This document shows, in pieces, positions 840 through 21,152 of a stretch of DNA of 64,000 nucleotides. Made by a program: the position numbers and the translations under genes. A model generated the notes under the pieces. It was not told where the DNA came from, made no database searches, and saw nothing but the letters and a program-made list of their open reading frames with translations. The DNA is from a virus, in the IMG/VR virus record IMGVR_UViG_3300044729_002678, positions 64,001-128,000 of that record; one strand, written 5' to 3'. The first letter of the stretch is position 1. Every line of letters begins with the position of its first letter.

Positions 840-2324
840 TTATTTCAACTTTTTAATTTCTTCTTTTAGTTCTTTTATTTCATCTAAAAGATGTTTAATT
901 ACTGCTGCATGATATGGTATCATACTTACATAACTAACACCAAATTCATAACCTTCTTTTGATATGTTACCCTCTTCGTCTGTATGTTCTTTAATTAATG
1001 GGTTTTCTGCTATTGTAATTAAATGGTCAAATCCATTTTTCATAACATCTTGCGCAATAACCCCTACATCGTATTTACCAGTTATTGTATCTAAATTATC
1101 ACTACTTTCAGGTCTTTTCCAATTAAATGAAACAGGTTTTACATTTTCTATCAACCTTAATGCGGTTTCAATATCTATACCTTTAATATTTTCTTTTAAC
1201 CTAACATCCGATGTTGAGGATATTCCAGATGAACCAAGAGACCTAATTTCTTGCGCAGTAACAGCACCATCGGTAAATATACCCGTATTTATTACATTAT
1301 ATGGGTTAGATATTTGTTCAGGACTAATCATTACCCCCGACATAGAATTATCAGGATGTCTAATTGATGTGTAATAAGATGTATTTCCCGTTTTGGGTGG
1401 TGGGTGTCTCAATGTACCATAATTAGTAGTACCTGGAGTTGGATTATATACTTTTACAGCAATTGGTGGGGATGCGCCTCTAGATGATAGATTAAATAAA
1501 TCTTGAAACCCAATATACACAATTCCAGCTTTATTTTGGTCTCTTAACGCATCAGTATTATTTCTAAGATTTGCAGCGGTTTCGGTTGTTCTAGTAATTC
1601 TAACAGGCCCATAGAAATCGGAAATATTATTATTTGTTGGTTTTATTTCTACCAAATTTCTTAATGTGTTTGGAGTTCCATGTGGACCGAAAAAACCATT
1701 TCCAATTATTGTCGCAAACGCCAACGATGAACCAGTATTAAGAGTTCCCTTTACATGCTGACCATGACCCTCCGCAATTGTATAAGTTCCTTCTGCATGG
1801 GAATAATCACCATTTGCTTTTGTAGAAAATCCTTCAGCATGGGAATAATCACCATTTGCTAGTGTACTCAATCCTTCAGCATGGGAATAATCACCATTTG
1901 CTGTTGTAGAAATTCCTTCTGCATGGGAAGCCGTACCATTTGCATTAGTATATTGACCTTCTGCATGGGAATAATCACCATTCGCCGCATTTTGAAAACC
2001 ATTAGAAAGAGTGCCTAAAATTTGCAATGTTGCTGTTGGTAGTACTGCACCCGTTCCTATTCCGATTCTACTTCCACTTTCATAAATTGAAGAGGTTGTA
2101 ATAGTAGTGTTTCCACTCCAACGGGTTATATAATTTTGAGTTCCACTTCCACCAATAACACTACCACCGCTTACTAGCGATGATGCTGAAAAGTAGGTGA
2201 ATATGCCTGATTGTGAATTATAACCAACAATATTTGCTTGTGCGGTATTTGGTAAACCACTTGCGGTTATGTTTAATACGTGTATTGCACTACCTGATTG
2301 TAGTATCTTTTTCCATGATGGCAT
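840..2324 (-). CDS. Tail fibre with YadA-like repeats and C-terminal intramolecular chaperone (peptidase S74-like)
   Basis: ANGDYSHAEGxxT repeats; SDVRLKENI autocleavage motif followed by FNWK, GVIAQDV and a terminal coiled coil; N-terminal MPSWKKILQSGS. Confidence 0.85.
   Translation of the reverse strand: MPSWKKILQSGSAIHVLNITASGLPNTAQANIVGYNSQSGIFTYFSASSLVSGGSVIGGSGTQNYITRWSGNTTITTSSIYESGSRIGIGTGAVLPTATLQILGTLSNGFQNAANGDYSHAEGQYTNANGTASHAEGISTTANGDYSHAEGLSTLANGDYSHAEGFSTKANGDYSHAEGTYTIAEGHGQHVKGTLNTGSSLAFATIIGNGFFGPHGTPNTLRNLVEIKPTNNNISDFYGPVRITRTTETAANLRNNTDALRDQNKAGIVYIGFQDLFNLSSRGASPPIAVKVYNPTPGTTNYGTLRHPPPKTGNTSYYTSIRHPDNSMSGVMISPEQISNPYNVINTGIFTDGAVTAQEIRSLGSSGISSTSDVRLKENIKGIDIETALRLIENVKPVSFNWKRPESSDNLDTITGKYDVGVIAQDVMKNGFDHLITIAENPLIKEHTDEEGNISKEGYEFGVSYVSMIPYHAAVIKHLLDEIKELKEEIKKLK
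1790..1985 (-). repeat. 42-bp tandem coding repeats (ANGDYSHAEG units)
   Basis: gcatgggaataatcacca recurs at 42-bp multiples. Confidence 0.9.
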
Positions 2325-2430
2325 ACTTCACTCACTAATTTATAACACATTATGGTTGGATACACATACTAAGTGAGTAGTATATGGGCCCACTTCCTTA
2401 TTCAGGCCAATAATATGTTTTGGTTATACT
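2325..2430 (-). ncRNA. Candidate structured cis-regulatory 5' leader of the tail-fibre gene
   Basis: mRNA stems ACAUAUUAU/AUAAUGUGU, CCU-GAAUA-AGG and CAUAUACUA/UAGUAUGUG; loop CUCACU is complementary to AGUGAG 7-12 nt upstream of the AUG. Confidence 0.6.
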
Positions 2431-2436
2431 CTATTA

Positions 2437-2444
2437 TATAAGTA
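2437..2444 (-). promoter_or_regulatory. Putative late promoter variant TACTTATA
   Basis: One mismatch to the recurring TATTTATA motif; lies just upstream of the structured leader. Confidence 0.5.
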
Positions 2445-2477
2445 TGGAAAAATATTTTATTATTGTTTATTTCCCCA

Positions 2478-4280
2478 CTATGAGTATATCCAAATATCGC
2501 CATTATTTTGGATATGCATATTACCAAATCCAAAAGAAGCGCTACCAAAAGTTGGTGCATTTGAATCGGATGGGGCGGCTGATGATGCGGAAACCGTTAC
2601 CATAAAATCGGTTGGAGTTACATTCATTGAACCTGTTGGTACACCCAATGCTACACCCCATCTATTTGCTAAACCATTTGCTGCACCACTACCGCTATTG
2701 AATACGAAAGCAGAACCACTACCATTTGCTCCTTCAATAATTATACCACCTTCGGATGAGGGTGTTAAAGAACCTGAACTTCTTCCTAAAACGATAAACT
2801 TATCTTCTATTGATATGTTTGATGTGTTTATTACCGTTGTATCACCGTTTACAGTTAAATCACCAGTAACAGTTAAATTATTTCGAACAGTAGTTGTACC
2901 GGTTGTAGCACCTATGGCGACTGTAGTCGCTACCCCACCAATGTTTAGGGTAGTAGCGTTTGTATTAAATATAGTAGTAGTTCCAGTTGATGTTGTTGTT
3001 ATATCACCACCATTTACTGCTAAATCCCCACCAATGGAAATATTACCACTTGCGGTTATATGTGTAAATGAGGGGGAATCTGCAAAGTCAAATGTTAATG
3101 TATCGGGTGTAGTAGCAGCACTAATCGTTATGTTTACATCGGATGATGAAATGATTAAAGTATCTGCCGAAGAATCTGCTTGCGCTGTACCAGTCGAACC
3201 ACCCAAGCCACCAACATTAATAGTTGCAAACGAATTAATACCCGTTATACTACCCGATGGTAATGTTGCTACTTTAACGAGCTCACCACCAGAACCAACT
3301 AAAGCTATATTATAGCCTGCATTGTCCGTCACCAATGGCAATCCCGATGCGGTTAGGGTTGATGTGGCTAAATTGGTAAATGTTGGAGAGTCTTTAAATG
3401 AAAAGGTTATAGTATCAATACCAGCTGAACCTGATATTAACAAGTTATTGTTTGTGTTGGAAATCCCAGCAAATGAGCCTGATGCAATACTCAAATTACC
3501 TGTTGCAGTATCTGCTATAACGGCTACACCACCAACGCTCATTGTTGCATAAGCATTTGTTCCCGCCACACTTTGTATAGAAGCGCTTAAAGCCGCAATT
3601 GTTGCTGCAGCATAATCACCAATGTATAAGTATGCATCAACATGGGTTGGTATTGTTGAAGCGCCTGCTGCAAATTGTGTTGGGTCTTGTATCCACAAAA
3701 TACCCGCAGAACAATCAACTACCCAGTCGGATTGGTCTGTGGGTTCTATTAAAATACTTCCTGAATATAATCTAGGTGTATAATTCTCGCCAAAAGCAGG
3801 TGGAACAATTTGTAATCCAAATCCACTACCAGTTAAATGATAATTATTTACATATGGAGCAGTTCCTTTTTTGGGGTTGGATGAATTACTAACACTTTCA
3901 TAACTACCTGTTAATCTAAGTGCATAAGTGTGATTTGTAGATGATATATTAATTTCACCTTGTTGTTCAATTGTTGTTCCTACTAAATCAGCTGGTGCTG
4001 TATATGGATAGTTACCACTACCAACTGCAGTCAACTGAAATCTTACATATTCTAATACAGGCTTACCACCCAATGATTGGGAATAAAGTGTATAAATGGT
4101 TGGAGCGGTTGTTGGTATTTGTGAATTTATTGGTAATTGATCAGCAAATATACTCTGTCCCCCCAATTGAACAGTTGATGAAATGATTTCATTTGGGGTT
4201 GGATTTAGTGGGGTGGTATGTGCTTTACCATCCAATCGTTTACTAACAATATCTAATTTATTAAGCTGAGTTACTGCCAT
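2478..4280 (-). CDS. Virion structural/tail fibre protein
   Basis: 600 aa, G/S/T-rich; GDLTVNGDTT beta repeats; shares DNA blocks and C-terminal FGNxHI...IWxY with 6644-8665. Confidence 0.7.
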   Translation of the reverse strand: MAVTQLNKLDIVSKRLDGKAHTTPLNPTPNEIISSTVQLGGQSIFADQLPINSQIPTTAPTIYTLYSQSLGGKPVLEYVRFQLTAVGSGNYPYTAPADLVGTTIEQQGEINISSTNHTYALRLTGSYESVSNSSNPKKGTAPYVNNYHLTGSGFGLQIVPPAFGENYTPRLYSGSILIEPTDQSDWVVDCSAGILWIQDPTQFAAGASTIPTHVDAYLYIGDYAAATIAALSASIQSVAGTNAYATMSVGGVAVIADTATGNLSIASGSFAGISNTNNNLLISGSAGIDTITFSFKDSPTFTNLATSTLTASGLPLVTDNAGYNIALVGSGGELVKVATLPSGSITGINSFATINVGGLGGSTGTAQADSSADTLIISSSDVNITISAATTPDTLTFDFADSPSFTHITASGNISIGGDLAVNGGDITTTSTGTTTIFNTNATTLNIGGVATTVAIGATTGTTTVRNNLTVTGDLTVNGDTTVINTSNISIEDKFIVLGRSSGSLTPSSEGGIIIEGANGSGSAFVFNSGSGAANGLANRWGVALGVPTGSMNVTPTDFMVTVSASSAAPSDSNAPTFGSASFGFGNMHIQNNGDIWIYS

Positions 4281-4335: not shown

Positions 4336-6345
4336 TTATGCTACTGTTATTTGTGTTATTCTCCCCGTCCAACCAGTTGTTGCGGTAATTCTAACTAACC
4401 AATTGGTATCCGAAGATGGTAGGCCAGGCCAGCTTTGATTTCTCATATTAATTGTTTTTGCTGTACCACTATTAATAGCAGCACCATCACCACAACCAAC
4501 ATTGTCATCAAATTGTGTATAAGATGTAGGAGCAGCCACTAACAAATCACGATATCCAGTACTCTCTGGTATTTTAATATGTATGTAGGCGTTTTGGCTT
4601 GCTAATGCGGTAGTATTAGCTACAAATCCTGAAGTCATACCAGTCCATGAAATTGTTATATTTTTTTGAGAATTACTACCATCAGATGCATTATGCAAAA
4701 ACCTTCTATACAAATATTTAGTTCCGCTCAATGCACTATAGTCTGGAACAGTACCTGCTTTATATACCGCGCCACTCATATTACCAACAACCGATGGATA
4801 AACTAACGCATTGTCAAAAAATGCCAATTCGCTTGTGAGTGTACCCAATGATGTGGTTGCATTATACACAGCAGTAGTTAAAGATGCTTGGGTATCATAG
4901 GAAGCGGATGGGACTCTGTGGCTTTCAGTTGTGAAATACTCAATTTTAGTAGTTGGTATCGATGTATTTGTATGTATGATAATTGTTGGTGTACTTATTG
5001 TTTGTGGTCCAGTTGTTTTTCCTTGAACACCAAGTGCTGTATAAGTTACTGATATTGGGTTGTTTAATGCCCTCGCATTCGTCCCAAATGTAAATGAAGA
5101 AGTTGCTTGTAAATTTGAATTGAAATTAGTAGGTGCGGGTGGTGTATATGATGTAACAGAACCCGATGTTCCTGTGGATGAAAATGTTATAGCGGTTGAA
5201 TTATAACTACAACTATAAAAACCAGGAACACTACCACTTGCAATAAAAGTAAGAGCAGTACGATACGGAATCCCCGAAATCCATTTAAGACCTGTTGGAT
5301 TAAATGAATGTGTTGAATTTGTTGGTGCTGAAAATGATGTACCTGCTTGTGCTGGATCAAAAACCCAATCTGCGTAATTTGTCATTTTCATAGAAGATGA
5401 TTGTATTACTTTTACATAATTCCATCCTCTTTGAAAAAATGATGATGTTATTGTTAAAGTACCGGTTCTATGCCTTCTATACACAAATGATAATCCCGTA
5501 TCTTTAAATGATCCGGTTTGTGCAGCAGATAAACTAAAATTATTAGCATCTGAAAAAGCGGATGTTCCTGTTGTAGTTACTTTAAATTGCTGATTGTTTA
5601 TTTCAACAATATAACTCTCACCACCATCCGCAGGAACACTAAAAGCATCCGCTGGATAGTTTGTAAACGAAGCCGAATCAGGAGTAGTACTTTCGTTTAT
5701 ATCAAATGTTAGGGAACGTGATGCTGTAAAAATACCGAGTCTATAATAAGTACTGCTTGGCGATGTTGTATTTGTAACAGCTATAAAAGATTCCCCATTG
5801 TTTACCGCAGTACTCATCGGAGCTACACTGCCAGTTCCACTTGAGCTGATGTACCCTGTCGCAACAACACCACTACCAAACGATAATCTTGTGTTTGAAG
5901 TTGTATTAGCGCTTGTTGCTAATCCTTCAAGATTTCTAACATCAGGTGCTGAAGATGGGGCTAATCCATTTAACACCTCATTAAACCTATCAATCGCAGT
6001 ACCAATTGGTGTTGTTTGTGCGGAAAAATCAGTAAAAAGACCATCGCTATAATCACTATCTTCAGCAGAACCAATTGTTATATTTCCACCAACTACAGTA
6101 TGATTTGAGGCGGTTGTGAGTGTGGTAATACCATTCCACACAGCTAGTTTGTTTGCTTCACCACCAGTACCAGCATATGTTACTGCATTTGCGGTTGCAA
6201 TTGATGATGTATCGAATTTAGTAATATTACCCGAGCCATCTATACCAAGTACTTGAGCTTGACCGGCCGTTGGTAAATTACTCGCGGTTATGTTAGTAAA
6301 ACTTCCGTCGCTACCTGATATTAATATTCGTTTCCATTCTGCCAT
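4336..6345 (-). CDS. Virion structural protein (WKR N-terminal module)
   Basis: 669 aa, S/T-rich; MAEWKRILISGS N-terminus shared with neighbouring fibre genes. Confidence 0.6.
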   Translation of the reverse strand: MAEWKRILISGSDGSFTNITASNLPTAGQAQVLGIDGSGNITKFDTSSIATANAVTYAGTGGEANKLAVWNGITTLTTASNHTVVGGNITIGSAEDSDYSDGLFTDFSAQTTPIGTAIDRFNEVLNGLAPSSAPDVRNLEGLATSANTTSNTRLSFGSGVVATGYISSSGTGSVAPMSTAVNNGESFIAVTNTTSPSSTYYRLGIFTASRSLTFDINESTTPDSASFTNYPADAFSVPADGGESYIVEINNQQFKVTTTGTSAFSDANNFSLSAAQTGSFKDTGLSFVYRRHRTGTLTITSSFFQRGWNYVKVIQSSSMKMTNYADWVFDPAQAGTSFSAPTNSTHSFNPTGLKWISGIPYRTALTFIASGSVPGFYSCSYNSTAITFSSTGTSGSVTSYTPPAPTNFNSNLQATSSFTFGTNARALNNPISVTYTALGVQGKTTGPQTISTPTIIIHTNTSIPTTKIEYFTTESHRVPSASYDTQASLTTAVYNATTSLGTLTSELAFFDNALVYPSVVGNMSGAVYKAGTVPDYSALSGTKYLYRRFLHNASDGSNSQKNITISWTGMTSGFVANTTALASQNAYIHIKIPESTGYRDLLVAAPTSYTQFDDNVGCGDGAAINSGTAKTINMRNQSWPGLPSSDTNWLVRITATTGWTGRITQITVA

Positions 6346-19250: not shown

Positions 19251-21152
19251 TTAAACATCGTTATTTAATATGTTTCTTTCATCCAACATATCAAATTTTT
19301 GGTTTTTTTCATCGGTATCTGTCAACAATGACTCAACTATAATTTTTTTAGTTTTTATTTTTGAATTTTGTAAGCTTGTTTTTAACTGCATCCCTTCAAC
19401 AGAAAGTGGTGATTTCCTAAATGTATGGTATGCTTTTTCAGGTTTTATATCCGTTTCATATCCCATTGCGTTTCTTCCAAAAGAACTATCATCAGTTCCA
19501 GCAATACTACCCTCTTCCGGTCTACCAGCCCCTTCAAATCCACCAGGAGGTGAACCACCTTCATTATCACCAGAAGCAGGTTGCCCTCCCGCTTCTGCCG
19601 ATTGTTGTGATAATGCTGCCAAATCATGCGGAGTTCCAAACGATTCACCAGTCTTAATTGGGTCATTACCCTCAGTTTCAATTTGGGACTGTCTAAATCC
19701 TAATTTCAAATCGTTAATAACTTTAACCTGTTCTGCTTTCCACTCATCATCGGACATGTTAAATATATTTTTATATACCCATTCTTGTGAAAGTAGTTTT
19801 GATGTTTTTATATCCGATGCCAATCGCACATTTTCAATCCAAAGAGCAACCTTTTCTTGCTGATAAATTATTGATGGTGGTGTTAATTCTAAATAGAAGT
19901 TAGATAAGGCCTCATTTTCGTATCCCTGTGCATACAAATGTATGATTGCTATTTTTGTCAATTCGGATAAAACAATTTTTTGTACCCGCTCAATACTCCT
20001 AGCAAAACGAATATCTTGTTGAGCAAGCGTCGCTTTACCCTCTACACCCTCTTCATAACCAATAAATGCTTTTGGAACTTTAAGAGCGGCCTGCATTCGG
20101 TTTTTAAGATAATTTATATCCTCAATACCAGTGAATTCCATTCCACCCAAAGTATCAATTTGAGTACCACTTTGACCACCTCTTACGGGTAAATAATAAT
20201 CTTCTAACATATTTTGTATGTTAAATTTAAGATTATAATCACCAGTAGCTTCATCTACATAAGGAACTTTTTTCATTTGGTCTATAATGTTCCTAACATG
20301 CTGGTCTACTTCATTTGGTGGTATGTTACCAACATCAATTTTAAATACCCTTTTTTCAGGAGCACGCATAATACGATGAATTAACATCGCATCTTCCATA
20401 AGGGTTAATTGTTTCCAAGTTTTTCTAGCAGGTTCTAATAAGGAACGACCATAAGGTAAAAAGTTTGTGTCTGAAAATAACCTAAAATGGGCTATTTTAT
20501 AAAATGGAATATAATTTTGTATATCGTTGCTAGATTTTTGATAATTAAATCCGGTAGCACCACCACCCATCGTTGTCATTTTAAATCTAACTTCATATGG
20601 GTTATCGGAATTAAACCCCTCTTCTCTTTCAATTTCATATGCTGATATTGGTGATACATTTACAATACCAATACCCTCTTCAATATCTAAGTTAAGATAG
20701 TAATCGCCATATTTATTCATCCCTCTAATCCACGCCCAAAGATTAAATTCTATATTAAGGACATCATAAAAAAGATTTTGTAATATTTTTTTAATATTTT
20801 CATCATCCGAATTAATCCTCAATACATCCCCAAGATCGTTCTTGAGTGTGCATTCATCCGAGTAAATATCTAAAACGGATGCAATAATTGAATCTTTATC
20901 CATCGCCTCATAATCAGTATAAAGTTCTAACCGATTGGATGAATAATTGTATTGATTATTGTAAGTTTCCCAATTTTGACGAGATGAGTGTAATCTACCA
21001 AATCTATCGTAGTAGGAAGTTCCTTTTATATTACCCTGCGATTGTAATCGTTGTGTATCAATAGCCCTAGTTTTACCCTTACCAATTCTTCTTACTACAA
21101 CCTGAGTTGAAAAGAGTTTTTGTAATCTACCGAATAAAGATTTATCTGCCAT
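19251..21152 (-). CDS. Portal protein (T4 gp20-like)
   Basis: LMEDAMLIHRIMRAPEKRVFKIDVGNIP, LEDYYLPVRGG, ALKVPK motifs. Confidence 0.96.
   Translation of the reverse strand: MADKSLFGRLQKLFSTQVVVRRIGKGKTRAIDTQRLQSQGNIKGTSYYDRFGRLHSSRQNWETYNNQYNYSSNRLELYTDYEAMDKDSIIASVLDIYSDECTLKNDLGDVLRINSDDENIKKILQNLFYDVLNIEFNLWAWIRGMNKYGDYYLNLDIEEGIGIVNVSPISAYEIEREEGFNSDNPYEVRFKMTTMGGGATGFNYQKSSNDIQNYIPFYKIAHFRLFSDTNFLPYGRSLLEPARKTWKQLTLMEDAMLIHRIMRAPEKRVFKIDVGNIPPNEVDQHVRNIIDQMKKVPYVDEATGDYNLKFNIQNMLEDYYLPVRGGQSGTQIDTLGGMEFTGIEDINYLKNRMQAALKVPKAFIGYEEGVEGKATLAQQDIRFARSIERVQKIVLSELTKIAIIHLYAQGYENEALSNFYLELTPPSIIYQQEKVALWIENVRLASDIKTSKLLSQEWVYKNIFNMSDDEWKAEQVKVINDLKLGFRQSQIETEGNDPIKTGESFGTPHDLAALSQQSAEAGGQPASGDNEGGSPPGGFEGAGRPEEGSIAGTDDSSFGRNAMGYETDIKPEKAYHTFRKSPLSVEGMQLKTSLQNSKIKTKKIIVESLLTDTDEKNQKFDMLDERNILNNDV

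Follow-up and report, generated by a model that had tools for sequence, protein, structure and literature searches.

The leader RNA that is the subject of this analysis lies in a window of 64,000 nucleotides (bases 64001-128000) taken from an IMG/VR virus record, which is itself 161.6 kb in length and is estimated to be 84% complete. Every gene of the window is encoded by the minus strand. The phage, a T4-type myovirus, has portal, terminase and capsid genes, and its major capsid protein shares 58% identity with that of Microcystis phage Mel-JY01 and 53% identity with that of Flavobacterium phage immuto. The leader RNA is located within a 153-nt gap, with a 600-aa ORF upstream and a 494-aa tail-fibre gene downstream:

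2478-4280, minus strand: 600-aa ORF that could not be annotated, the upstream neighbour of the leader RNA
840-2324, minus strand: tail-fibre gene of 494 aa, starting MPSWKK and carrying a C-terminal Peptidase_S74 chaperone domain (Pfam PF13884, E 1.3e-13; PHROG tail-fibre families also match)
2322-2324, minus strand: AUG start codon of the fibre gene, read from the sequence

Fibre-like genes with a WKK-type N-terminal module also start at 6345 (MAEWKR) and 8665 (MASWKK) on the minus strand. The leader motif is absent before both of these paralogous genes, as judged by a covariance-model search, and a repeat search of the phage's own genome found no second copy.

The leader is predicted to form a three-way junction of helices termed P1, P2 and P3, the parts of which are set out here together with the proposed partner of the P3 loop:

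2342-2420, minus strand: whole three-way-junction leader motif (covariance model R1, 71.8 bits, E 1.4e-17 to 7.4e-18)
2418-2410, minus strand: P1 5' strand ACAUAUUAU, pairing with 2353-2345
2409, minus strand: bulged U between the P1 5' strand and the GG
2408-2407, minus strand: conserved GG, pairing with the CC at 2355-2354
2406-2396, minus strand: P2 hairpin CCU-GAAUA-AGG, with 99.6-100% of cells paired in the family
2393-2395, minus strand: junction strand AAG (J2/3), each base of which is present in 92/92 aligned copies
2357-2392, minus strand: P3 arm with base UGG(G)/(U)CCA and internal loop CC/UA, from the fold and the covariation of the base
2386-2378 with 2371-2363, minus strand: 9-bp P3 stem formed by CAUAUACUA with UAGUAUGUG, from sequence and fold
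2377-2372, minus strand: P3 loop CUCACU, complementary to AGUGAG
2356, minus strand: J3/1 A, a single junction base
2355-2354, minus strand: CC, pairing with the GG at 2408-2407
2353-2345, minus strand: P1 3' strand AUAAUGUGU, pairing with 2418-2410
2336-2331 (-12 to -7 from the AUG), minus strand: AGUGAG, the proposed target of the P3 loop and a perfect 6-bp complement of CUCACU

The first-pass annotation of this DNA had described the same stems and loops at the same positions; a check of the minus-strand sequence agreed with it throughout, and ViennaRNA gives the same fold. Model R1 finds a single match in the window and in the whole 161.6-kb genome. The 78-nt core (2343-2420, minus strand) has a folding energy of -23.4 kcal/mol (z = -3.04, ViennaRNA), with one of 200 shuffles being as stable, and when flanks are included (135 nt) the fold is unexceptional (z = -0.70). 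No mutually exclusive alternative fold of the leader was found. The energy of the CUCACU/AGUGAG duplex is -6.3 kcal/mol. A five-codon upstream ORF (AUG UGU AUC CAA CCA UAA, 2350-2367, minus strand) runs within the 3' strands of P3 and P1; it occurs in this clade only, its AUG is inside a stem, and it is probably meaningless.

Relatives of the leader were collected by several routes. The 24-nt P3 hairpin is present as an exact copy in 10 IMG/VR contigs whose fibre proteins are just 52-75% identical to that of the window, and the differences in the outer stem between the window and these relatives are compensatory double changes. A search anchored on the fibre N-terminus yielded 80 metagenome loci, most of which share one architecture directly before the ATG: from 5' to 3' this consists of P1, one bulged base, GG (which pairs with CC), a P2 hairpin that starts with CC and ends with GG, AAG, a P3 hairpin (base UGG/CCA, with an AA bulge), a single A, CC and the P1 3' strand. 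A covariance model was built from 13 sequences and the deduced structure. Its seed comprised short-arm and long-P3 sequences (classes defined below); a plain MAFFT alignment of all classes placed the P2 loop UUGGC on the 5' junction UUGGCC. Indeed the P2 loop of the marine class, UUGGC(A), is identical in sequence to the 5' junction strand UUGGC(C). The model gave one match per motif-bearing locus, with 55 strong matches across 318 kb and another 92 across 880 kb of additional sequence, and zero matches in four false positives of a regex search. A scan of IMG/VR with the core pattern, independent of the protein, gave at least 120 loci. In total more than 150 distinct copies were obtained from viral and metagenome contigs of freshwater and marine origin, together with one from the cultured Flavobacterium phage immuto, and each of two complete or near-complete genomes checked carries one copy.

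Covariation among the collected leaders bears out the original proposal of a structured leader RNA and shows it to be real and conserved, with P1, P2 and P3 all covarying strongly. Cells forming pairs made up 93.6% of the total for 45 distinct sequences and 91.3% for 92 sequences, compared with 83.2% and 84.1%, respectively, in shuffle controls, and none of 500 shuffles matched the observed pairing in either set. Changes on both sides were found for 11 of 18 pairs in the smaller set and 12 of 18 in the larger; when the partners were slid by 1-3 columns, the paired cells amounted to 26-51% (45 sequences) and 21-48% (92 sequences). Across the family, P1 shows double compensatory changes in 7-8 of its 10 pairs. 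The base of P3, GU(G/A)GG with AC(C/U)AACC, also covaries (G-C 39-49, A-U 5-6, G-U 1), the third pair of P2 is either U-A or C-G, and CC..GG is replaced by CU..AG in one locus (L081). RNAalifold recovers the same three helices, from an alignment that had been fitted to the covariance model. Distal P2 (2-9 bp) and distal P3 are wholly different in sequence between lineages and are always hairpins, and a long distal P3 stem is specific to the window's clade and the clade with a GGCAUA loop.

The arms are thus free in sequence and length, and approximately 25 nt of the junction are almost invariant, namely GG:CC, AAG, UGG:CCA, the AA bulge and the single A. That the junction hardly varies at all in the 92-sequence set is due in part to that set having been partly chosen by core sequence; the protein-anchored set shows modest junction variation, and the AAG strand is invariant there too. 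Such an invariant junction is poorly explained by helix stability alone, and suggests a specific tertiary fold that docks something. A conserved, structured, aptamer-like core with covarying outer helices is also what is seen in riboswitches.

The motif is tightly linked to one type of gene. In every copy it lies 12-35 nt upstream of an AUG that begins either an MP(S/N)WKK fibre gene or a homing-endonuclease gene inserted there. The start of the downstream product is MPSWKK in 81 of 146 distinct copies, MPNWKK in 59, MPAWKK in one and MPNY... (a homing-endonuclease ORF) in two, with three starts not assigned by pattern. The association with M-P-x-W-K-K fibre genes (M-x-x-WKK in the first-pass annotation) therefore holds among the collected copies: where the start is assignable, the downstream gene is an MP(S/N/A)WKK fibre gene or an inserted endonuclease, and there is no association with ligand-metabolism genes. 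The converse is looser, as the motif is missing from about one quarter of MPSWKK genes, and loci L031 and L032 each have a second MPSWKK gene without it. In locus L110 the motif adjoins fibre and tail-sheath genes, in the order MASWKK gene, motif, 121-aa MPSWKK gene and 824-aa fibre. Conservation covers the leader and the first ~20 codons; the remainder of the gene encodes 121-1690 aa and is unrelated between loci.

Homing-endonuclease genes lie directly 3' of the motif in three loci (L106:1553-1795, minus strand; L190:1443-1643, plus strand; L139:10525-11247, minus strand). They are free-standing, of the HNH type in two loci and the GIY-YIG/NUMOD1 type in one. The first three codons of the HNH ORFs (MPN) are those of the fibre gene itself, and the conserved DNA of the motif has the appearance of a homing target.

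Among cultured phages, immuto (vB_FspM_immuto_2-6A), which infects Flavobacterium sp. LMO8, carries one copy (NC_055915.1:137887-137951, 55.3 bits with the covariance model) that precedes gp052, a 'putative tail fiber-like protein' with an MPSWKK start. In this copy GA:UC replaces GG:CC, a pair that is unvaried in all aligned metagenomic copies, and this is a natural compensatory double change. The leader and the fibre N-terminus gave no match in 50,697 phage records by megablast, blastn and tblastn; the immuto copy came to light only when its record was searched with the covariance model. When prokaryote genomes were scanned with the core pattern, one genuine copy was present among the first 120 matches listed, the rest being mostly chance, so that the motif appears to be essentially confined to uncultured aquatic myoviruses. 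The genuine match (L298, NZIO01000021.1) lies on a contig of 14.9 kb that had been binned with a Candidatus Pelagibacter MAG; this copy is of the SD (Shine-Dalgarno) class described below and precedes an MPNWKK start, which hints weakly at SAR11-like hosts for the marine SD class.

The copies fall into lineage classes that differ in their arms and in the initiation region that they adjoin:

Short-arm class, 66 copies, including that of immuto: GNRA or UUCG-type tetraloops cap P2 and P3
Long-P2 class, 49-52 copies, marine: SD always present
Long-P3 class with loop GGCAUA(A), 20 copies: loop complementary to UAUGCC at -1 to +5
The window's class with P3 loop CUCACU, 16 copies: loop complementary to AGUGAG, without a canonical SD
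Small class with P2 loop CUAAYUA: loop a weak match to AGUUGG

In the short-arm class the motif ends 12-23 nt upstream of the AUG, and an SD is found in 12 of the 66 copies only. In 52 of the 66, the distance from the end of a TATATTTAT-type late box to P1 downstream is 5-9 nt, and because of this short distance the motif is predicted to form the very 5' end of the late mRNA. The promoter box is usually absent from the long-P2 class, in which the motif is therefore read as intercistronic; here the SD overlaps the P1 3' strand (AUAAGG-AG) in 36 of 49 copies, and the P2 loop, (N)UGGC(A/G) or UUGGUG, complements (U)GCCA(A), which is formed by the start codon and the Pro codon. In the window's class the core ends 29-35 nt upstream of the AUG. 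Two traits of known translational control elements are accordingly present in the family: as in T4-type operators, the motif sits at the initiation region (ending 12-35 nt before the AUG), and, in the manner of an expression platform, the P1 3' strand overlaps the SD in the 36/49 SD-class copies and loops complement an SD-like block or the start codon.

It had been proposed for this phage that the P3 loop pairs with the initiation region of the fibre gene, and the comparison with sister lineages supports this: every long-arm lineage shows complementarity between its loop and its own initiation region. The probability of an equally good loop match by chance, scored on 5000 background 35-nt windows, is 0.003 for CUCACU, 0.005-0.02 for GGCAUA(A), 0.02-0.4 for UGGC-type loops and 0.06-0.27 for CUAAYUA. 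The bases flanking the start codon were compared between classes at position -1 and at +6, the third base of the Pro codon:

GGCAUA class: -1 is U in 20/20, with -2 to -4 varying; +6 is A13, G5, C2
UGGY class: -1 is A31, U14, G7; +6 is A in 51/52 (CCA)
CUCACU class: -1 is U15, C1; +6 is A7, U5, G4
Short-arm class: -1 is U37, A24, C4, G1; +6 is A49, G8, U6, C3

The single exception at +6 in the UGGY class is G, with which wobble pairing is still possible. The contrasts at -1 and at +6 each give a Fisher p of ~3e-6, not corrected for shared ancestry; likewise, loop and target change together across clades, with -1 and +6 constrained to match, in a comparison in which phylogeny was not corrected for. 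The window's own pair is CUCACU with AGUGAG, and it is without direct covariation because it never varies. Across 16 distinct clade members, AGUGAGU is the one linker block that does not vary, with indels and substitutions on both sides of it, and its distance from the AUG ranges from 3 to 8 nt. A weak ribosome-binding role offers another possible reason for the retention of AGUGAG: in the paralogous fibre gene at 6345, GUGAG is found about as far from the AUG, and many other late genes here use AGGAG-type SDs. A 6-nt hairpin loop paired along its full length is also sterically tight, which counts against the pseudoknot. Approximately 45% of the copies have short, tetraloop-capped arms and no loop-target pairing. 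The pseudoknot proposed for this phage is consequently best seen as an accessory feature of some lineages, in keeping with the loop/target complementarity of the long-arm lineages, and not as a feature that defines the family. A different pairing, of the junction strands UUGGC/CCAAC with GCCAA/GUUGG of the coding start, was considered and rejected, as the Ser/Asn codon is unconstrained (AGU/AGC, AAU/AAC).

The late promoter that had been placed at 2437-2444 is doubtful, given that the late box of this genome is TATATTTAT and that the window's sub-clade has only TATATAATA at 2440-2432:

2432-2440, minus strand: TATATAATA, possible degenerate late box, uncertain; a canonical copy is present in the sister clade and absent here

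In the sister clade the late box lies 25-27 nt 5' of P1, and the window's sub-clade has lost the canonical box. No terminator and no sigma-70 promoter were found in the gap between the upstream gene and the motif, so that read-through from the upstream gene is equally possible. A look-alike of a T4 late promoter, TATAAATT, is located at 2344-2337 (minus strand), between the P1 3' strand and AGUGAG; it is not conserved in the sister clade, and a transcript from it, if the site is active, would be free of the motif. Elsewhere in the window the late box TATATTTAT is positioned 11-17 nt before the ATG of the minus-strand genes starting at 21152, 30462, 48029, 28094 and 56238, the portal gene included, and this short distance implies near-leaderless mRNAs for several late genes.

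Taken together, these features are best accounted for, with a probability of roughly 0.55, by a leader that acts in cis as a translational gate on one tail-fibre gene and responds to an effector. The motif would form a compact three-way junction immediately 5' of the start codon, the folded form of which would cover the ribosome landing site. In this phage the loop of the long P3 may pair with AGUGAG at -12 to -7, giving a pseudoknot; the partner of the GGCAUA or UGGCA loop of sister lineages may be the start codon itself, and in SD-using relatives part of the SD would lie within the P1 3' strand. Pairing of the start codon or burial of the SD can only hinder 30S binding, and for this reason the folded motif is best read as a brake on fibre translation. 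Both the repressive effect of pairing on translation and the existence of an effector are inferred. The invariant junction is the most likely docking site for such an effector, which would set the balance between open and closed forms, and the outcome would be fibre synthesis that is low, delayed or conditional relative to that of the other late proteins.

There are parallels to such a gate among known systems. The translational riboswitches SAM-II/V and preQ1 likewise have a conserved core beside the RBS and no separate terminator, and in them a closing helix or pseudoknot holds nucleotides of the SD or start codon; they differ from the motif in having no sequence or structure homology to it, and the motif is tied to a single structural gene and not to a metabolic pathway. 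In T4, the leader pseudoknot of gene 32 and the operators of gp43 and RegA are RNAs at or beside an initiation region that limit one gene, and the early transcripts of e and soc contain RBS-sequestering hairpins that likewise hold down the translation of a particular gene. The T4 operators each have a known bound protein and take the form of simple hairpins or one pseudoknot, whereas the motif is a conserved three-way junction common to very distant phages.

The effector of the gate could be a small molecule or a phage or host protein, and we divide the chances about evenly between the two. That the motif is linked exclusively to one structural gene speaks somewhat against a metabolite sensor and somewhat in favour of a protein partner. 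The linkage of the RNA to the conserved N-terminal module of the fibre also hints at a protein operator, in a suggestive way only; adjacency and joint inheritance of leader and N-terminal module would explain the one-gene link equally well. The more specific proposal of a new riboswitch class with the motif as its aptamer, through which a host metabolite or ion conditions the display of one receptor-binding fibre in large aquatic myoviruses, is tentative and we regard it as rather unlikely.

A non-regulatory role is also improbable. Here the motif would be a constitutive structure at the 5' end of the fibre mRNA that serves in its protection or processing, as a decay barrier or an RNase III/E site. 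This would fit with the short-arm class, where the late box ends 5-9 nt before P1 and the motif would be the transcript's 5' end, with the lack of an alternative fold in our searches, and with the very short leaders of other late genes of this phage. A stem alone, however, does not need ~25 invariant junction nucleotides, start-codon-complementary loops and constraints at -1/+6 are not required for stability, and in the SD class the motif lies between cistrons rather than at the 5' end.

The motif, as a three-way junction whose core is highly conserved and whose arms are free, borne by phages in intergenic DNA and absent from Rfam, also brings to mind the hammerhead and other small ribozymes, and a new self-cleaving class could cut the late polycistronic mRNA just before the fibre gene. 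We consider this very improbable: none of the known small-ribozyme models in Rfam matches the motif, no core sequence is held in common, and the tight AUG spacing, the SD overlap and the complementarity of loop and start codon would be unneeded by a ribozyme and have no ribozyme counterpart.

That the site works at the level of DNA, as a recombination or homing site for the exchange of fibre cassettes and endonuclease genes, is scarcely credible. It would account for a conserved leader and first ~20 codons before gene remainders that are unrelated between loci, and for HNH and GIY-YIG endonuclease genes inserted exactly at this point; yet the compensatory changes preserve pairing at the RNA level, some of it through G-U pairs, which in DNA are mismatches, the arms differ completely between lineages and so offer no homology for recombination, and homing to this site is more readily understood as a result of its conservation.

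There remains the question of a known RNA family. The first-pass annotation could assign the leader to none, and Rfam 15 agrees, with nothing at the motif under gathering thresholds and nothing under E-value thresholds in the window and 18 relatives; ARAGORN found no tRNA in the genome, and no tmRNA. The nearest known RNA is the glutamine-I riboswitch (glnA RNA, RF01739), which is also a small three-way junction of ~55-65 nt in a 5' leader close to the start codon. Common to both is a variable P2 followed by GGAAGU(A/G)GG and a short P3: where glnA RNA has GGAAGUAGG between P2 and P3 of its three-way junction, the motif has GGAAGU(G/A)GG. Moreover, glnA RNAs occur in aquatic microbes and their phages (PMC9004378). 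The glutamine contacts, however, are in the conserved P1 CGUUC/GAACG (C1:G59, C58) and the E-loop (PMC6698751). Eight genuine glnA RNAs from seven cyanobacterial genomes all carry CGUUCAUC...GAAGGAACGCGCC, in the layout CGUUCAUC-P2-ACGGAAGUAGGG-loop-CCCGAAGGAACGCGCC. The motif lacks the P1 CGUUC/GAACG, the E-loop strand GAAGGAAC and the 3' CGCC tail; its 3' junction strand is GUAACCAACC, its P1 is variable and AU-rich, unlike that of glnA, and it is linked to fibres and not to nitrogen-metabolism genes. The RF01739 model, which has a gathering threshold of 35 bits, gave nothing at E <= 10 in window positions 2300-2490 or in the whole genome (16 candidates scored), and model R1 in turn detected none of the eight glnA RNAs. 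With both models silent and the ligand-contacting P1 and E-loop absent, membership of the glutamine-I class was rejected, and even a divergent member of it is most improbable.

To our knowledge, there has been hardly any exploration of structured regulatory RNAs in phage late genes, and we know of none that controls a tail fibre. Literature searches by sequence and topic found no published description of this motif. It is abundant, with more than 150 distinct copies, and occurs in phages whose signals for transcription and translation are quite different, and the cultured pair of Flavobacterium sp. LMO8 and phage immuto makes it directly testable. If the motif is a sensor, it would link host physiology to the receptor-binding proteins of the virion; were it indeed a new riboswitch, the state of the infected cell would set the composition of the virion and perhaps its host range. 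If instead it is a protein operator, it would represent a new autoregulatory circuit in tail assembly. Either way, the motif is a candidate for a new Rfam RNA family and a marker for one fibre-gene module in uncultured myoviruses.
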